Shown here piece after piece: positions 2,744 to 38,717 of a DNA stretch of 40,000 nucleotides. The stretch spans positions 99,646 through 139,645 of the forward strand of contig NZ_JABTCF010000009.1 in the NCBI RefSeq assembly GCF_014596745.1, given 5' to 3'. The notes beneath the pieces are model-generated. The model made no database searches. It was not told the DNA's origin and worked only from the letters and a program-made list of their open reading frames with translations. Position 1 is the first letter of the stretch, and every line of letters begins with the position of its first letter. The position numbers and the translations under genes are program-made. This DNA comes from Maribacter aquimaris. Its GTDB lineage: Bacteria; Bacteroidota; Bacteroidia; Flavobacteriales; Flavobacteriaceae.

Positions 2744-3592
2744 TTATCTGTTTTTAAATAATCCGATCATTTCCATGGGGGATATATGCGGTCTTCCAGA
2801 GGCCTTTTCGAAATCAGATGGTACATCATTGGATCCATTCTTGATCCCTTCGTAAATTCCGGTGATGATGGTTCCCATGAATTCCCCCAACTCCTTTTTT
2901 CTGTCTTCCGCATAAGCTTCAACTGAAATAGGATTATAAGACAGGCTTGTCCCATACGCTTGATTGATCAATTTGGCCAGGTACTCTTGGGTGATTGGCT
3001 CACCTACCAAATTGTACACCAGCCCATTATGCTTTTCATGCAACAGCATTTGTGCATAGGCGTAACCCAATTCCTCCCTACTGGTATAGGCACATTTCCC
3101 TGTCCCCGCACAATTCTTGATTTCACCCGCTTTGACATACTGGTCTATGTATTCCAAATCGGGTTCGATATAAATTCCATTTCTACCAATGACCCACGCA
3201 AGGCCCGATTCCTGTATATCCTTTTCGGTTTGGCGATTACTTTGCACGACAGGACTAAAGGCCGTTTTATTTTCGTCTCCAATAATGCTGGTGTAAACAA
3301 TCTTATGAACCCCGTTCAGTTTTGCCGCTTCAATGACATTTCTATGCTGTTGTATCCTTTTCTGTGGGTCATCCATACCTGAAACCAAAAGAACCGCATC
3401 AATACCTTGTAATGCTTGATTAAAATGCTCTCGGTTATTGTAATCTCCCTCTCGGATTTCGATTCCCAGACGATGTGCTTTTTCGGGGGTCCGTGCAATA
3501 CCTATAACATTCTCTTTCCCGATTTCCTTTATTAGTTGCCGTACGATGGCCGACCCCAAATGCCCGCTAGCTGATGTTACTGCAATCTTCAT
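2744..3592 (-). CDS. NmrA-like / atypical SDR NAD(P)H-binding oxidoreductase
   Basis: N-terminal Gly-rich dinucleotide motif MKIAVTSASGHLGSAIV. 282 aa, with the length and layout typical of the NmrA/QorB-like family. Confidence 0.8.
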   Translation of the reverse strand: MKIAVTSASGHLGSAIVRQLIKEIGKENVIGIARTPEKAHRLGIEIREGDYNNREHFNQALQGIDAVLLVSGMDDPQKRIQQHRNVIEAAKLNGVHKIVYTSIIGDENKTAFSPVVQSNRQTEKDIQESGLAWVIGRNGIYIEPDLEYIDQYVKAGEIKNCAGTGKCAYTSREELGYAYAQMLLHEKHNGLVYNLVGEPITQEYLAKLINQAYGTSLSYNPISVEAYAEDRKKELGEFMGTIITGIYEGIKNGSNDVPSDFEKASGRPHISPMEMIGLFKNR

Positions 3593-16565: not shown

Positions 16566-17912
16566 TTGGTAGTTGCTGTTCGCTGCTGGCTAATCGCTGT
16601 TCGCTAATGGCTAGTGGCTAATGGCTTTGCGCTTTGCGCTTTGCGCTGCTGGCTGTTCGCTATTCGCTTTGTGCTAATTGCTAATTGTACATTGTTCACT
16701 GCTTACTGTTCACTGTACACTGTTCACTGCTTACTACTATGAACAAAAAACTTTTAACTTATAACTCCCAACTTGGCTGTTCGCTTTTCGCTGCTGGCTA
16801 ATCGCTGTGCGCTATTCGCTATACGCAGACCGCTTATTGCTAATGGTTAATGGCTAATGGCTGTTCGCTTTTCGCTGTTCATTGTTAATTGATCATTGCC
16901 CACTGCCCACTGTTCACTGTTCACTGTTCACTGTTCACTGCTTACTGCTTACTGCTTACTGCTTACTGCTTACTACTATGAACAAAAAACTTTTAACTTA
17001 TAACTCCCGACTTATAACTTCCAACTTGGCTTTTGGCTTTTGTCCCTTGGCTGTTCGCTATTCGCTTTGTGCTAATTGCTAATTGCTAATTGTACATTGT
17101 TCACTGCTTACTGTTCACTGCTTACTGTTCACTGTCCACTGTTCACTGCTTACTGCTTACTGCTTACAGTCCATTGCTTACTGCTTACTACTATGAACAA
17201 AAAACTTTTAACTTATAACTCCCAACTTGGCTGTTCGCTTTTCGCTGCTGGCTAATCGCTATTCGCTATACGCAGACCGCTTATTGCTAATGGTTAATGG
17301 CTGTTCGCTGTTCATTGTTAATTGATCATTGCCCACTGTCCACTGCCCACTGTCCACTGTCCACTGTTCACTGTACACTGCTTACTGCTTACTGCTTACA
17401 GTCCATTGCTTACTGCTTACTGCTATGAACAAAAAACTTTTAACTTACCCCTTATAACTTCCAACTTGGTTTTTGGCTTTTGTCCCTTGGCTGTTCGCTA
17501 ATCGCTTTGCGCTGTTCATTGTTAATTGTTCATTGTCCACTGTTCACTGTTCACTGTTCACTGTCCACTGTCCACTGTCCACTGTTCACTGTACACTGTA
17601 CACTGTTCACTGCTTACTGCTTACTGCTTACTGCTTACTGCTTACTACTATGAACAAAAAACTTTTAACTTACCCCTTATAACTTTAAACTTGGCTGTTA
17701 GCTGTTTGCCATTCGCTGTTCGCCAATTGTTAATTGCTTATTGGTCATTGTTAATTGCTCACTGCCCACTATTTACAGCTCACTGTCCACTGCCCACTCT
17801 TTACTGCTCACTGTCCACTATCCACTGCCCACTGTCCACTGCCCACTGTTCACTGTTCACTGTTCACTGCCCACTGTTCACTGCTTACTGTTCACTGTCC
17901 ACTGTCCACTGT
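16566..17912 (+). repeat. Heptanucleotide-lattice composite satellite, locus 1 (5 anchored units plus 1 degenerate unit)
   Basis: Heptad blocks of GCTNNNN, then AATTG/CATTG, then YYNACTG (TTCACTG, CTTACTG, CCCACTG, TCCACTG), followed by the anchor CTATGAACAAAAAACTTTTAACTTA. Anchor ATGs lie at 16739, 16978, 17193, 17425 and 17650 (spacing 239/215/232/225). I verified by hand one unbroken 7-nt lattice from 16575 to 17421. Confidence 0.95.
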
Positions 17913-18010
17913 TCCCCCATCCTTTTCGCCTAAATCCTTTTTTTTCTGACCAAAGTGTAACATTTTTGTAAAACGGACTACTTATAACGTAACAACCACC
18001 AAACAAAATC

Positions 18011-19998: not shown

Positions 19999-20640
19999 TT
20001 ATAAAACTTGCTTCAAAAGCTCCTTGATTTCGTTCAGCATCATGGCCGTTGCCCCCCAAACCGTGTAACCATTTAATTTAAAGGCGGGTACATCCATGTT
20101 TTTCGCATAAGATGTCGATAATTTTTGGATAAATACCTTGGAGTCATCCATGAAATCAATCAAAGGTACCTCTACCAATGCTTCAACTTCGGACTCTTGC
20201 ATGATAAAGGGACAGGGATTCGCCATGAGTCCCATAAACGGCTTTACCTCAAAATTACTGGGCGGAATATAGATTTCACTCAATGATTTAATAATCGATA
20301 CCTTTTCGGGAGGCACGCCTACTTCCTCATATGTTTCCCGCAATGCGGTATGCAAAATATCAGCATCCTCTTTTTCGGACTTCCCCCCGGGGAACCCTAT
20401 TTGGTTCGAATGTACCCCCTCATAGGTCTTACGAAGGATCAACAGTAAATGGGTAAGGCTTCGCTGATCGGGGTAGAACAAGGCCAAAACAGCGGCTTTT
20501 TTCGCATTTTGTTTTTTAATCTCACCGGCTTCCAACTCCTTTAATCGAATTGAAGGGGCCATTTTATAGTGGGAAGCACTACCTGGTAAGGGCAGATTTT
20601 TTATTTTTGAACTACGTAAGGCAAAATCATCAAAATTCAT
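19999..20640 (-). CDS. Nudix hydrolase, CoA pyrophosphatase type
   Basis: Nudix box GFPGGKSEKEDADILHTALRETYEEVG. The ATG at 20640 (MNFDDF...) is preferred to the TTG at 20649. Confidence 0.8.
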   Translation of the reverse strand: MNFDDFALRSSKIKNLPLPGSASHYKMAPSIRLKELEAGEIKKQNAKKAAVLALFYPDQRSLTHLLLILRKTYEGVHSNQIGFPGGKSEKEDADILHTALRETYEEVGVPPEKVSIIKSLSEIYIPPSNFEVKPFMGLMANPCPFIMQESEVEALVEVPLIDFMDDSKVFIQKLSTSYAKNMDVPAFKLNGYTVWGATAMMLNEIKELLKQVL

Positions 20641-21343
20641 GATATCCAAAAAATTCTATTCCACTACAATATTACTACTTATATTTTTGGTTGCCTGTAA
20701 GGAAGAACCTAAACCTACCACTGAAAAAGTAACAATTGTAACACAGGATTCCGTAGCACCAAAAGAAGAAATAAAAAAAGAGGAAGAACCTTTTAAACTG
20801 ACCGATGAAAACGCTATTGATTTCTTCTTTAATTACAATAAGACCCTAAAAGATGACAAGGTAAGGATCACGACCACCTTGGGCAGTTTCACGGTTCAGT
20901 TGTATGATAATGTCCCTTATCACAAAGCGAACTTCATCTACTTGACCAAAAAAGGTTATTTCAACAATACCCAGTTTCACCGTGTGGTGAAGAATTTCAT
21001 TATTCAGGGTGGTAATTCCGACGATAAGGCCACGGCCCAAAAGCGTAATGCTATAGGTAGATATCTACTACCGCCTGATGCGAAAAAAGGATATAAACAC
21101 CATCGAGGTACCATTTCCATGCCCAGTAGTGAAGTGGATAACCCGCATATGTTGGCCTCTCCCTATGAATTCTTCATTGTGGTCACCAAACCGGGATCTT
21201 ACCATTTGGATGGGGAATACACGCCATTCGGGAAAGTAATACAAGGTATGGATGTCGTTGACAAAATCAATGCGCAACGTGTCGGAAAGGGCGATTGGCC
21301 GTATCAAAACATTTACATTACCAAGGCGGAGGTGGTGAAGTGA
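20639..21343 (+). CDS. Cyclophilin-type peptidyl-prolyl cis-trans isomerase, lipoprotein
   Basis: Lipobox LVAC; cyclophilin core FHRVVKNFIIQGG ... GTISMP ... FFIV ... PFGKVIQGMDVVDKI. Confidence 0.9.
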   Translation: MISKKFYSTTILLLIFLVACKEEPKPTTEKVTIVTQDSVAPKEEIKKEEEPFKLTDENAIDFFFNYNKTLKDDKVRITTTLGSFTVQLYDNVPYHKANFIYLTKKGYFNNTQFHRVVKNFIIQGGNSDDKATAQKRNAIGRYLLPPDAKKGYKHHRGTISMPSSEVDNPHMLASPYEFFIVVTKPGSYHLDGEYTPFGKVIQGMDVVDKINAQRVGKGDWPYQNIYITKAEVVK

Positions 21344-21346
21344 ATA

Positions 21347-22211
21347 ATTGGCTTTTCGCTTAGCGCTGTTCGCTGTTCGCTAAACGCTTTGTGCTAATTG
21401 CTAATTGTACATTGTCCACTGTTCACTGTTCACTGCTTACTGTTCACTGCTTACTGCTTACTGTTCACTGCTTACTGTTCACTGCTTACTGTTCACTGCT
21501 TACTGCTTACTGCTTACTGCTTACTGCTTACTGCTATGAACAAAAAACTTTTAACTTATAACTCCCGACTTATAACTTCCAACTTAACTTTTCGCTTAGC
21601 GCTTGACGCAGACCGCTAATCGCTTTTCGCTAATGGCTAATGGCTGATGGCTACTGGCTACTGGTTACTGGTTACTGGCTACTGGCTACTGGCTTTCCGC
21701 TAATCGCTAAACGCTTTGTGCTAATTGCTAATTGTCCACTGTTCACTGTTCACTGCTTACTGTTCACTGCTTACTGCTTACTGCTTACTGCTTACTACTA
21801 TGAACAAAAAACTTTTAACTTATAACTCCCGACTTATAACTCCCCACTTGGCTTTTGAAATTTGGAATTTGCTAATGGCTACTGGCTACTGGCTACTGGT
21901 TACTGGTACTGGCTACTGGCTACTGGTTACTGGCTACTGGCTGTTCGCTAAACGCTTTGTGCTAATTGCTAATTGTCCACTGTTCACTGCTTACTGTTCA
22001 CTGCTTACTGTTCACTGCTTACTGCTTACTGCTTACTGCTTACTGCTTACTGCTTACTGCTATGAACAAAAAACTTTTAACTTATAACTCCCGACTTATA
22101 ACTTCCAACTTAGCTTTTCGCTACTGGCTACTGGCTATTGGCTTTCCGCTAATCGCTATTCGCTTTGCGCTAATTGCTAATTGCTAATTGCTAATTGCTA
22201 ATTGCTAATTG
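21347..22211 (+). repeat. Heptanucleotide-lattice composite satellite, locus 2 (3 anchored units plus a terminal GCTAATT block)
   Basis: Anchor ATGs at 21536, 21800 and 22062 (spacing 264/262). Locus-specific GG(C/T)TACT heptads (for example 21635-21690 and 21876-21940). Six perfect CTTACTG at 22018-22059 and six perfect GCTAATT at 22169-22210. Confidence 0.95.
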
Positions 22212-22236
22212 AAATTTAGAATTCACCTTTCCCTTA

Positions 22237-22848
22237 CTACTTCTTCACCTTATAAATATTAGGCAAGGCGATATGAAACTTTACAGCCAATAAACGGAAT
22301 ACAATAACTATCATAATAGCAACGATATAGGAATACGCGGAATCGATTGGGGTCATAGCCAATAAAAAATACGATACCCCTCCCAAAATACAGGCTGTAG
22401 CATAGATTTCCTTTTGGAATATTACTGGAATCTCATTACAGAGGATATCCCGAATCACCCCTCCAAAGGAAGCCGTTATGGTTCCAAGGATAATACATAT
22501 GGGCGGTGCCAATTCGGCTTCAAGTCCCTTTTCTATACCTACCATGGTGAACAATCCTATACCGATGGTATCGAATAAAAAAAGCGTTTTCCTTAAAAAT
22601 TTCAATTGGTTTACGAACAATATCGCCAATATGACCGCCCCCAATATCGTAAAGAGATAGATGGGATTCAGCATCCAGAATACAGGCTTATTCCCAATAA
22701 GCACATCACGCAGTGTTCCTCCCCCAGTAGCCGTCACAAAGGCAATGATAAGCACCCCGAACAAATCGAGTTTCTTTTCCATGGCCACCAAAACCCCAGA
22801 AATTGCGAAAGCTGCCGCACCTAAAATATCAATAATCAAATAAAGCAT
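22237..22848 (-). CDS. TRIC-family (UPF0126/YadS-like) cation channel
   Basis: 203 aa with 7 TM segments and an internal duplication carrying GGGTLRDVL and FGGVIRDIL. Confidence 0.8.
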   Translation of the reverse strand: MLYLIIDILGAAAFAISGVLVAMEKKLDLFGVLIIAFVTATGGGTLRDVLIGNKPVFWMLNPIYLFTILGAVILAILFVNQLKFLRKTLFLFDTIGIGLFTMVGIEKGLEAELAPPICIILGTITASFGGVIRDILCNEIPVIFQKEIYATACILGGVSYFLLAMTPIDSAYSYIVAIMIVIVFRLLAVKFHIALPNIYKVKK

Positions 22849-37585: not shown

Positions 37586-38583
37586 TTATCGCTATTCGCT
37601 TGGCGCAAATCGCTATTCGCACATCGCTTACCGCCAATTGCTCATTACTAACTGTACATTGTTAATTGTTCATTGTTCACTGCTTACTGTTCACTGCCTA
37701 CTGTTCACTGCCTACTGCCTACTGCTTACTGCTTACTGCTTACTGCTTACTGCTATGAACAAAAAACCTTTTAACTTATAACTTCTCACTCATAACTTCC
37801 AACTTGGCTATTCGCTGCTCGCTAATCGCAGACCGCTTATCGCTATTCGCTTGGCGCAAATCGCTATTCGCACATCGCTTACCGCCAATATCTCATTACT
37901 AACTGTACATTGTTAATTGTTCACTGCTTACTGTTCACTGCCTACTGTTCACTGCTTACTGTTCACTGCCTACTGCTATGAACAAAAAACCTTTTAACTT
38001 ATAACTTCCAACTTTGCTATTCGCTGATGGCTGCTCGCAGACCGCTTATCGCTATTCGCTTGGCGCAAATCGCTATTCGCACATCGCTAACCGCCAATTG
38101 CTCATTACTAACTGTACATTGTTAATTGTTAATTGTTCACTGCTTACTGCTTACTGTTCACTGCTTACTGTTCACTGCTTACTGTTCACTGCCTACTGTT
38201 CACTGCCTACTGTTCACTGCCTACTGTTCACTGCCTACTGCCTACTGCTTACTGCTTACTGCTTACTGCTATGAACAAAAAACCTTTTAACTTATAACTT
38301 CTCACTTATAACTTCCAACTTGGCTATTCGCTGCTCGCTAATCGCAGACCGCTTATCGCTATTCGCTTGGCGCAAATCGCTATTCGCACATCGCTTACCG
38401 CCAATTGCTCATTATTACTAACTGTACATTGTTAAATGTTCTCTGCTTACTGATTACTGCTTACTGCTTACTGTTCACTGCTTACTGTTCACTGCTTACT
38501 GTTCACTGCTTACTGTTCACTGCTTACTGTTCACTGCTTACTGTTCACTGCCTACTGTTCACTGCCTACTGTCCACTGTTCAC
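37586..38583 (+). repeat. Heptanucleotide-lattice composite satellite, locus 3 (3 anchored units plus 1 terminal unit)
   Basis: Anchor ATGs at 37755, 37978 and 38271 (spacing 223/293). It carries the locus-specific CCTACTG heptad, the anchor variant AAAAAACC and a near-identical ~95-nt GCAGACCGCTTATCGCTATTCGCTTGGCGCAAATCGCTATTCGCACATCGCT...TGTACATTGTTAATTGTT block. Confidence 0.95.
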
Positions 38584-38717
38584 CCCCCTATACATTACCC
38601 ACCGTCTTTCCCCCAAAAATTAGTTAGGTATTCCGTTGTCATATGGTCGCTAAATTCGTAACTTACTCCTTGAATTTTTTTCTAGTAAACCAATCAAAAT
38701 TAATACCTAATAATTAC

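Follow-up and report, generated by a model that had tools for sequence, protein, structure and literature searches.

What fills the spacer between two convergent genes with about 0.9 kb of 7-nt repeats, how did it come to be there, and does it do anything for the cell? We addressed these questions for a locus in a 40,000-nt stretch of Maribacter aquimaris DNA (contig NZ_JABTCF010000009.1, positions 99,646 to 139,645; hereafter the window, with positions counted from its first letter). The locus, termed locus 2, is bordered by the 3' ends of two genes, one for a cyclophilin and one for a channel protein of the trimeric intracellular cation (TRIC) type, and it is one of three in the window that carry heptanucleotide (heptad) repeats of the same family. 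Our findings suggest that the array is likely a noncoding, hypervariable heptanucleotide satellite of the M. polysiphoniae clade, resembling the short tandemly repeated repetitive (STRR) sequences of cyanobacteria, that would be shaped by slippage, unequal recombination, and ectopic exchange in a spacer where such DNA is tolerated. A preliminary description, made from the letters of the DNA, had proposed that the array grew by unequal exchange or by duplications that included flank sequence.

Locus 2 is a heptad array organized in higher-order units

When cut into 7-nt rows, the array forms one near-continuous 7-nt-periodic block from 21351 to 22223, which starts seven bases past the cyclophilin stop codon and ends thirteen bases short of the stop of the TRIC-like gene. 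Self-identity over 893 nt was 0.71 at lag 7, decreasing to 0.68 (lag 14), 0.62 (lag 21), and 0.57 (lag 28), against 0.16-0.26 at the remaining lags (background ~0.22) and 0.26 at lag 7 in the flanking cyclophilin gene. Tandem Repeats Finder (TRF) likewise reported period 7 across the whole array. In base composition, the + strand is poor in G (A 21%, C 25%, G 17%, T 38%), with a median C/G ratio of 1.71 in 78-nt windows. A head-to-tail unit within the 5-11-nt range and a length far beyond what composition would give are the properties of a long simple sequence repeat (SSR).

The heptads are grouped by an anchor. The 23-mer ATGAACAAAAAACTTTTAACTTA occurs exactly at 21536, 21800, and 22062, at spacings of 264 and 262 nt (chance expectation 0), and exactly five further times in locus 1, which bears out the earlier statements that three anchors divide the locus and that it is a second locus of the same satellite family. 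In heptad register, the anchor reads GCTATGA ACAAAAA ACTTTTA ACTTATA ACTCCCG ACTTATA ACTTCCA, and all parts of the array, the anchor included, are variants of one 7-nt frame (consensus YYNNNNG / RCTNNNN). The order within a unit is GCT-type heptads, xxxATTG, TCCACTG/TTCACTG, CTTACTG, the anchor ATGAACAAAAAACTTTTAACT, and then AACT-type heptads, for a unit length of ~200-265 nt. Units 1 and 2 of locus 2 are 93% identical over aligned columns and differ mainly in the post-anchor segment and in heptad counts. Monomers are therefore grouped in a longer tandem unit, as in a higher-order repeat, and TRF found corresponding longer periods in the sister arrays (209 nt in locus 3; 197 and 185 nt in M. 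polysiphoniae).

We further walked leftward, heptad by heptad, from 23 anchors (11 in the window and 12 in the M. polysiphoniae clade, from L001, L002, and L006). The series 5' of the anchor was graded in the same way at 23/23: positions 1 to 5 are mostly CTTACTG, followed by CTTACTG alternating with TTCACTG, then further left by TCCACTG, CCCACTG, TTCATTG, and TACATTG, then by GCTAATT, and finally by GCT-type heptads (GCTATTC, GCTAATC). The most homogeneous copies always stand directly beside the anchor.

The heptad rows also settled several details. Six perfect CTTACTG at 22018-22059 and six perfect GCTAATT at 22169-22210 are exactly where they had been reported. The GG(C/T)TACT runs needed adjustment: that given as 21635-21690 begins with GGCTAAT and GGCTGAT, leaving a true run of six units at 21649-21690, and that given as 21876-21940 spans 21877-21940 and contains one 6-nt unit (GGTACT) that shifts the register. 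The array had been said to end at 22210; its true end is 22223, given that the supposed flank motif is itself in 7-nt register.

The array carries no coding or structured-RNA signal and no surplus of promoter- or terminator-like sites

The array is noncoding and bounded by the stop codons of two convergent genes, with Pfam hits on both sides confirming the earlier placement between a + cyclophilin gene and a - TRIC gene. A 120-aa open reading frame (ORF) at 21725-22087 was considered and rejected as coding: its 21 matches were weak and of low complexity, and two of them were traced to contigs poor in genes that hold unrelated (TGTTCACTGCTTGC)n and (CTTACTG)n arrays. Open + strand frames arise in the array because these heptads contain no stop codons, and the anchor ATG is missing from many orthologous units. 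In the gene-poor metagenome contigs L046 (4100-4330) and L047 (4020-4290), (TGTTCACTGCTTGC)n and (CTTACTG/CCTACTG)n arrays have been called as "LLTAYCS" repeat proteins. A 47-aa gene called in the locus-1 array of L002 (12444-12587) is probably spurious, like the window ORFs at 17526-17933, 21725-22087, and 38014-38274.

A structured RNA was rejected on two grounds. Rfam gave 0 matches at the gathering score across the whole window, and the predicted fold of one unit was about as stable as its shuffles on both strands (z-scores -0.64 and -0.01). There were 0 inverted repeats of at least 10 nt in 981 nt. Sigma-70-type promoters and intrinsic terminators were predicted at fewer sites than in shuffles, with a tool that does not model Bacteroidetes-type promoters; a manual look for the Bacteroidetes-type TTTG / TAnnTTTG elements yielded solely 2-mismatch candidates, which we did not count as evidence. 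No intrinsic terminator was predicted for either convergent gene.

Orthologous arrays differ between species and between close relatives

Exact-match look-ups of the two flanking proteins, and of a protein hit at 100% identity, returned no record, and orthologous loci were reached via near-identical homologues. The TRIC-like protein of the window is 100% identical to a Maribacter sp. ANRC-HE7 protein and 99-100% identical to M. polysiphoniae proteins, and a scan of species-representative genomes for the anchor returned a single match, the orthologous locus of Maribacter polysiphoniae DSM 23514, with the same right flank and TRIC-like gene. Nucleotide identity of the flanks to the window is ~92-94% in L006 and L002 (M. 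polysiphoniae-type), 86% in the metagenome scaffold L019, ~80% in L016-L018 (the Maribacter sp. TH_r10 group), 79% in L021 (M. polysaccharolyticus), and 75% in L024 (Maribacter sp. HTCC2170). The spacer between the TRIC-like and cyclophilin genes measures 893 nt in the window, 950 nt in L002, 685 nt in L006, 170 nt in L019 and L020, 162, 183, and 218 nt in L016, L017, and L018, 924 nt in L021, and 10 nt in HTCC2170. No heptad array was found in the 14.6-kb syntenic block of HTCC2170, and a 10-nt, array-free spacer there argues that the array fills, in particular lineages, a spacer that can be all but absent. Together with the convergent genes, the 10-nt spacer supports the earlier view that a promoter-only role does not fit.

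The preliminary description had called for a comparison of unit numbers in related strains, and the orthologous arrays did differ in length, copy number, and unit content. The TH_r10 group, with flanks at 98.2-98.5% identity, has (GCTYTTG)n in this spacer with n = 10, 14, and 17 and differing C/T patterns; at 70-119 nt, these arrays are probably short enough for correct short-read assembly. Upstream of the sigma-factor gene, each of these strains has its own amplified variant, GGCTAAT x8, GGCTACT x8, or GGCTATT x9. L002 and L006, at 98.9% flank identity, differ by 265 nt in length and in several anchors of different type, and L001 and L002, at 99.8%, hold different sets of units. The terminal G(C/T)TAATT block counts 6 heptads in the window (all GCTAATT), 6 in L002 (1 GCTAATT and 5 GTTAATT), and 3 in L006 (2 and 1). 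Close relatives therefore do not carry identical arrays even at 98-99.8% flank identity, and copy numbers differ as they do in long SSRs.

In M. polysaccharolyticus (L021, 7613-8536), the heptads are inverted relative to all other relatives, which contradicts a fixed polarity with respect to replication or genes, an idea we had considered. The inverted array is joined to a separate, unrelated ~300-nt array of 14-nt period, whose motif, written in the orientation of the window, is (CTTGAAC TTGAYCC)n; none of the other genomes examined showed it. All of the short-read (Logan/ENA) contigs carrying this TRIC-like protein (12/12; L003-L005 and L007-L015) end 6-269 nt past its stop, inside the satellite; unit counts from draft genomes are thus to be treated with care.

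Unit 2 of locus 2 as a hybrid unit

The motif TGAAATTTAGAATT (22210-22223), taken in the preliminary description for unique right-flank sequence, recurs with one mismatch at 21856-21869, and there is no other match with at most one mismatch in the 40 kb. The recurrence was therefore correctly seen, with no third copy. Its reading as flank DNA copied into the array is not supported, given that TGAAATT TAGAATT are two in-register degenerate heptads. The heptad class TTGGAAT/TTGAAAT also occurs in the sigma-upstream array of L019 (TTTGGAATTTGGAATTTG), with related forms in L021 and L016-L018.

The orthologous array offers a different account of the two copies. The last unit of M. polysiphoniae reads ...ATAACTCCCCACTTGACCTTCGGAATTTGAGATTTGCTAATTG(TTAATTG)nAAATTTAGAATTCACC and contains both motif copies 21-42 nt apart, with a short terminal block between them, which indicates that the motif pair predates the species split. 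The left part of unit 2 of the window (anchor plus CCCCACTTGGCTTTTGAAATTTGGAATTTGCTAAT) is orthologous to this terminal unit; its opening, ...ATAACTCCCCACTTGGCTTTTGAAATTTGGAATTTGCTAATGG, matches M. polysiphoniae at 75/86 aligned positions. The right part of unit 2 (the GGCTACT / GCT / ACTG series) matches its counterpart in unit 1 at 93-100% identity, and one more anchor and then the terminal block follow. Compared to M. polysiphoniae, ~290 extra nt, or one unit, separate the motif copies in the window, and the junction lies inside GCTAAT-type heptads. On these alignments, unit 2 is a hybrid. The ~290 nt may have been gained by the window lineage or lost from M. polysiphoniae; in both cases, an extra unit with its junctions in GCTAAT-type heptads is the signature of unequal exchange between same-type heptads of different units. 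Of the two proposed modes of growth, then, unequal exchange gains support from hybrid unit 2, while duplication of flank sequence is not supported, the pair being already present in M. polysiphoniae.

Variants are shared between loci of one genome

The three loci are all intergenic, share one orientation, and together make up 8% of the window (Table 1). The anchor region is identical over 50 nt between loci 1 and 2, which are 4.5 kb apart, and a close variant is found at locus 3, 16 kb away. The window-specific anchor variant ...TTATAACTCCCGACTTATAACTTCCAACTT is common to window loci 1 and 2; in M. polysiphoniae, the anchors end ...TAATAACTCCCCACTT at locus 2 and take a third form, CGTTCACAAAAACTTTTAACTTAACACTTATAACTTTAAACTT, at locus 1. 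The locus-1 edge unit (…GGCTGTTAGCTGTTTGCCATTCGCT) is conserved between the window and M. polysiphoniae. Anchor variants would thus follow the genome and not the locus, being shared within genomes and differing between them, which is the pattern of concerted evolution, seen here in a thin sample of two loci in two species.

The GG(C/T)TACT heptads had been described as present at locus 2 only. That holds within the window, where 11/11 tandem GG[CT]TACT pairs fall in locus 2, and GGCTACT is likewise confined to locus 2 in M. polysiphoniae. It does not hold for the genus: GGCTACT runs stand at the sigma-upstream locus of L017 and L018, two strains of another Maribacter species, and these heptads are part of a genus-wide repertoire.

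The arrays of loci 1 and 3 end at the same junction, ...CTGTCCACTGTTC(A)CCCCC (17890-17915 and 38565-38590), beyond which the flanks are unrelated; the arrays may share a terminus here, or the match may be coincidental. At locus 1, all arrays stop at one and the same boundary, upstream of a conserved segment of ~75 nt (…CCTTTTTTTTCTGACCAAAGTGTAACATTTTTGTAAAAC…ACTACTTATAACGTAACAACCACC) before the gene for the extracytoplasmic function (ECF) sigma factor (window 17915-18010; also L006, L019, L016-L018, L021, and L024). The segment is recognizable even in array-free HTCC2170 and is probably the promoter and leader of the sigma-factor gene. In the TH_r10 group, M. polysaccharolyticus, and HTCC2170, a gene for a 479-aa M20 peptidase separates the ECF sigma-factor gene from the XerC/D-like recombinase gene. 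The peptidase gene is absent, with no remnant by tblastn, from the window, M. polysiphoniae, and L019, where its place is taken by the locus-1 satellite. We considered whether the XerC/D-like recombinase is an array-associated enzyme and rejected the idea, as the same synteny is found in array-free HTCC2170.

Table 1. Parts of the locus-2 array, its flanking genes, the sister loci, and the M20 peptidase region (window coordinates unless a genome is named)
Feature	Positions	Strand	Basis or remark
Leading block, 9 GCT-type heptads (GCTTTTC ... GCTAATT GCTAATT GTACATT)	21351-21413	+	heptad register
ACTG-type block 0, 17 heptads (GTCCACT, GTTCACT, GCTTACT); last 5 perfect GCTTACT abut the anchor	21414-21532	+	heptad register
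Anchor 1 (ATG 21536), GCT-ATGAACAAAAAACTTTTAACT then AACT-type heptads TATAACT CCCGACT TATAACT TCCAACT, in 7-nt register	21533-21586	+	exact 23-mer
GCT-type block, unit 1	21587-21648	+	heptad register
GG(C/T)TACT x6, unit 1	21649-21690	+	heptad register; same heptads in the orthologous M. polysiphoniae array
GCT-type block, last heptads TGCTAAT TGCTAA	21691-21731	+	heptad register
ACTG-type block 1	21732-21799	+	heptad register
Anchor 2, end ...ATAACTCCCCACTTGGC as in the M. polysiphoniae terminal unit	21800-21852	+	exact 23-mer, unit alignment
Internal flank-like heptads TTTTGAAATTTGGAATTTGCTAAT (motif at 21856-21869); M. polysiphoniae orthologue CTTCGGAATTTGAGATTTGCTAAT	21853-21876	+	sequence comparison
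GG(C/T)TACT x9 with one register-shifting 6-nt unit GGTACT	21877-21940	+	TRF period 7, 10.4 copies
GCT-type block, unit 2	21941-21973	+	heptad register
ACTG-type block 2, including six perfect CTTACTG (22018-22059)	21974-22061	+	heptad register
Anchor 3, first 51 nt same as anchor 1	22062-22112	+	exact 23-mer, unit alignment
GCT-type block, unit 3, with third short run GCTACTG x2 at 22120-22133	22113-22168	+	heptad register
Terminal GCTAATT x6	22169-22210	+	heptad register
TGAAATT TAGAATT, two degenerate in-register heptads, true right edge; conserved in M. polysiphoniae	22210-22223	+	heptad register
Cyclophilin-type peptidyl-prolyl isomerase, left flank	20639-21343	+	Pfam PF00160 Pro_isomerase, E=1.1e-41; stop TGA 21341-21343
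TRIC-like cation channel (UPF0126 / Gly_transporter), right flank; Maribacter homologues named trimeric intracellular cation channel family protein	22237-22848	-	Pfam PF03458, E=2.8e-49; stop 22237-22239 (CTA on + strand)
Locus 1, 5 anchors, same orientation, between XerC/D-like recombinase and ECF sigma-factor genes	16575-17923	+	
Locus 3, 3 anchors with extra C, CCTACTG heptads, between OsmC and xylose-isomerase-like TIM-barrel genes	37590-38590	+	
M20 peptidase region, L016	11258-12697		
M20 peptidase region, L021	12059-13498		
M20 peptidase region, L024	11123-12568		
Region compared with the above, window	16566-18010		

How the array may have arisen, and what else it could be

Three molecular mechanisms, which we infer from these patterns, would account for the array. 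Slipped-strand mispairing would add or remove single heptads, producing the runs of perfect copies and the strain-specific copy numbers. Unequal recombination between same-type heptads of different units would duplicate, delete, and hybridize whole units, and exchange between arrays at different loci of one genome would homogenize variants, as in concerted evolution. The locus-2 array itself would then be spacer DNA that is tolerated between convergent genes, essentially selfish or neutral and free of any sequence-specific role.

Several observations weigh against this reading. The same two spacers of the 14.6-kb block hold arrays in most genomes at 79-94% flank identity and the other spacers hold none, the exception being the sigma-upstream spacer of L021, which was not flagged as an array and has degenerate heptad-like motifs alone; such repeated occupancy could mean long persistence by turnover, or that arrays are selected for at these sites. 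Copy numbers churn, yet the anchor core AAAAACTTTTAAC and the graded heptad order are conserved, which a purely neutral process does not obviously predict. The three window loci have one orientation, and every relative but M. polysaccharolyticus has it too. Assembly may have distorted the unit counts of long arrays in draft genomes, and the lack of function is argued from an absence of signals.

We considered that the array could instead serve as a platform for a single-strand- or RNA-binding factor, or as a transcription insulator, which we regard as unlikely. The transcript of the + strand, G-poor, unstructured, and with a conserved trinucleotide every 7 nt (RCT), would load a protein such as Rho, ribosomal protein S1, or a cold-shock protein (7-nt footprint). 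Once loaded, this protein would terminate or dampen transcription running on from the cyclophilin gene; at loci 1 and 3, it would do so for transcription that leaves the upstream gene and heads into the following promoter. The C-over-G bias given above, the absence of secondary structure and inverted repeats, and the lack of a predicted intrinsic terminator at either convergent gene are all in keeping with this idea, as is the occupation of the same spacers in most related genomes examined. At loci 1 and 3, moreover, where the neighboring genes run in one direction, the arrays occupy the sense strand and end right before the conserved promoter-proximal segment of the sigma gene. Rho, however, prefers YC dinucleotides at its primary binding site, and CTTACTG, the most abundant heptad, contains none. 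Furthermore, a 10-nt spacer suffices in HTCC2170, lengths range from 162 to 950 nt with heptad types freely swapped between strains, and in the inverted array of M. polysaccharolyticus the G-poor strand would serve the other gene. Two literature reports also speak for the idea: binding of S1, Csp, or CsrA has been proposed by MacGregor for TAACTGA heptamers (PMC4679880), and deletion of heptamer repeats changed the activity of the Nostoc recO promoter 1.5-1.6-fold (bioRxiv 10.1101/2022.06.06.494920).

The persistent occupancy of the same spacers and the homogeneity of the heptads next to the anchor could also mean that the arrays, far from being passive products of slippage, are built and maintained by a dedicated, lineage-restricted activity that would start at the anchor (AAAAACTTTTAAC, an A-tract/T-tract element) and add CTTACTG on its 5' side, a proposal that we find quite improbable. 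A templated polymerase that adds repeats, or a heptad-phased single-strand-binding protein, could provide such an activity. The proposal would explain why the most homogeneous heptads always stand beside the anchor and older, mutated ones further off, why the graded order recurs in every unit, locus, and species, and why spacers stay occupied while their content turns over. If true, this would amount to a bacterial genome-shaping system of a new kind, one that might connect the heptamer arrays of cyanobacteria with those of Flavobacteriia.

It is very unlikely, in our estimate, that the 200-265-nt unit is a nonautonomous mobile element, inserted by some enzyme into intergenic DNA with the anchor as recognition site and then tandemly multiplied. 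The identical 50-nt anchor region at two loci and the close variant at the third could be read in this way, as could variants that are genome-specific and not locus-specific, the right-end junction CCACTGTTC(A)CCCCC common to loci 1 and 3, and the lack of arrays in HTCC2170. However, miniature inverted-repeat transposable elements (MITEs) have terminal inverted repeats and target-site duplications, and we found no inverted repeats, no left-end sequence common to the three loci, and no recognizable target-site duplication, with the empty HTCC2170 site too diverged to judge. No transposase gene lies beside any of the three loci, and the XerC/D-like gene keeps its syntenic place even where arrays are missing. 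Orthologous spacers, and not new sites, are occupied across species, and ectopic recombination between arrays explains the shared variants without transposition. The anchor had 0 matches in viral contigs, and BLAST against a phage collection gave no match, so the array is not carried by phage. The 21 metagenome matches to the anchor core were rejected as satellite copies, given that none is flanked by a heptad array and all look like chance.

Heptads themselves do occur in viral-labelled contigs. L061, labelled as a giant-virus metagenome-assembled genome, has GCTATTC beside GCTTACT at 3325-3415, and L052 and L063 (viral contigs of 64-65% GC) carry (CTCACTG)7 and a short inverted pair of arrays; bacterial contamination is possible in these cases.

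A contingency (phase-variation) locus, in which heptad copy number would tune a neighboring gene as (ATCTTTC)n does for hmw1A of Haemophilus influenzae, where heptanucleotide promoter repeats are a proven mechanism (PMC8262952), is scarcely plausible here. Copy number does differ between strains, and loci 1 and 3 lie upstream of gene starts. At locus 2, in contrast, the repeat sits between two 3' ends and touches no promoter or reading frame, and HTCC2170 manages with 10 nt. Arrays of 0.7-1.4 kb far exceed known promoter SSRs, and the locus-1 array ends upstream of the ~75-nt conserved segment, which leaves the spacing within the expected core-promoter stretch unchanged. An assembly artefact or mis-collapsed repeat deserves next to no credence: although short-read assemblies break inside the array, at least 8 independently assembled related genomes and metagenome scaffolds have the same array family in place with matching edges and shared sub-blocks, and the internal structure is ordered, not chaotic.

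Comparison with known repeat systems

Prokaryotic heptanucleotide arrays form a broad class, of which this array is a member. In cyanobacteria, such tandem arrays have been on record since 1990, when Mazel and colleagues reportedly described the STRR heptanucleotides. Those of heterocystous cyanobacteria are STRR1 (CCCCAGT), STRR2 (TTGGTCA), and STRR3 (CAACAGT). The Maribacter arrays resemble these, and the heptads of Microcystis, in that tandem 7-nt units of several types stand side by side in intergenic DNA at many loci (three in 40 kb here), are lineage-specific, and vary between strains. They differ in that Maribacter belongs to the Bacteroidota, family Flavobacteriaceae, and STRR1-3 tandem copies were absent in any register on either strand. 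To our knowledge, higher-order units of 200-265 nt around a conserved anchor have not been described for STRR. Spacers of Microcystis aeruginosa hold CTTACTG, TTTACTG, and TTCACTG (PMC4679880 supplement). Given that STRR1/3, TAACTGA, and the Microcystis heptads can all be read as ACTGNNN, we considered whether the ACTG core is special across phyla and found no support for it, which leaves the idea a low-probability lead: (CTTACTG)3 occurred in 15 viral contig stretches versus 26, 5, and 5 for composition-matched controls.

A further close parallel is offered by the intergenic "assemblages of heptamer repeats" that MacGregor (2015) noted in Gramella forsetii, Aequorivita sublithincola, and Elizabethkingia, which are missing in close relatives and break assemblies (PMC4679880). 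The Maribacter case shares with them long multi-type heptamer arrays in Flavobacteriia spacers, short repeat-free spacers in relatives, and contigs that end in repeats. The Flavobacteriia arrays were mentioned there in passing, without anchor, unit structure, strain comparison, or inter-locus exchange (PMC4679880). Heptanucleotides are described as the most abundant class of long SSRs in most prokaryote genomes, with polymerase slippage blamed (Mrazek 2007, as relayed in PMC4679880). The TAACTGA repeats of Beggiatoaceae share the ACTG core (TAACTGA being ACTGATA in another register) but are short (2-6 copies) and lie just upstream of start codons. Locus 2 lies between two stop codons, not a few nucleotides upstream of a start in forward orientation, and it contains 0 tandem TAACTGA with up to one mismatch and 0 in any register. 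A 7,335-bp circular "plasmid" of Chryseobacterium fluminis (L048; NZ_CP111120.1) carries 64.6 perfect copies of GCGATTA at 141-592 with no annotated gene; in reverse complement, GCGATTA gives the GCTAATC-type heptad found in Maribacter. Our literature search returned no description of Maribacter satellites, nor of an anchor with a graded series in higher-order units, of strain-to-genus variation at orthologous loci, or of inter-locus homogenization in such arrays.

Functional precedents for heptad repeats are confined to promoters (hmw1A, Nostoc recO), a position that is not applicable to locus 2. The (ATCTTTC)n promoter repeats of H. influenzae hmw1A and hmw2A cause phase variation (PMC8262952), and the (TTTTGAT)n repeats of the Vibrio cholerae ctxAB promoter are reported to do the same (bioRxiv 10.1101/2021.05.14.444153). 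They have in common with the Maribacter array a 7-nt unit and slippage-driven changes in copy number between isolates. The hmw and ctxAB repeats, however, lie within promoters and consist of one heptad type in tens of copies, whereas locus 2 mixes types over ~0.9 kb between 3' ends.

Among other repeat classes, the enterobacterial repetitive extragenic palindromic sequences and bacterial interspersed mosaic elements (REP/BIME) are imperfect palindromes in alternating orientation that are tied to the RAYT (REP-associated tyrosine) transposase. Like the Maribacter array, they are short extragenic motifs in a fixed grammar, often between convergent genes or at 3' ends, and vary between strains; unlike them, the array has no inverted repeat, and all of its units point one way. 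CRISPR arrays consist of identical repeats with unique spacers of similar length between them, and locus 2 consists of contiguous heptads without unique spacers.

Eukaryotic satellite DNA with higher-order repeats, such as alpha satellite, evolves by unequal crossing-over and concerted evolution. The Maribacter array resembles it in several ways: its monomers are combined into higher-order units, its cores are homogeneous and its edges degenerate, its copy number is polymorphic, and genome-specific variants recur across separate arrays. It differs in lying on a bacterial chromosome, in being of kilobase and not megabase size with a 7-nt monomer, and in having no centromere or heterochromatin context. 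Among the heptanucleotide arrays of cyanobacteria and Flavobacteriia, those of the Maribacter clade form a compact case that is unusually informative, with a clear internal grammar. Given that orthologous loci range from empty (10 nt) to ~1 kb and differ at 98-99.8% flank identity, rates of slippage, unit exchange, and homogenization are measurable in a culturable bacterium. There is also a practical side, in that such arrays break short-read assemblies, generate spurious ORFs, and seed spurious protein families in databases. If the arrays are bound or built by a specific factor, their interest rises sharply; if they are neutral, they provide a clean bacterial model of satellite-DNA dynamics.

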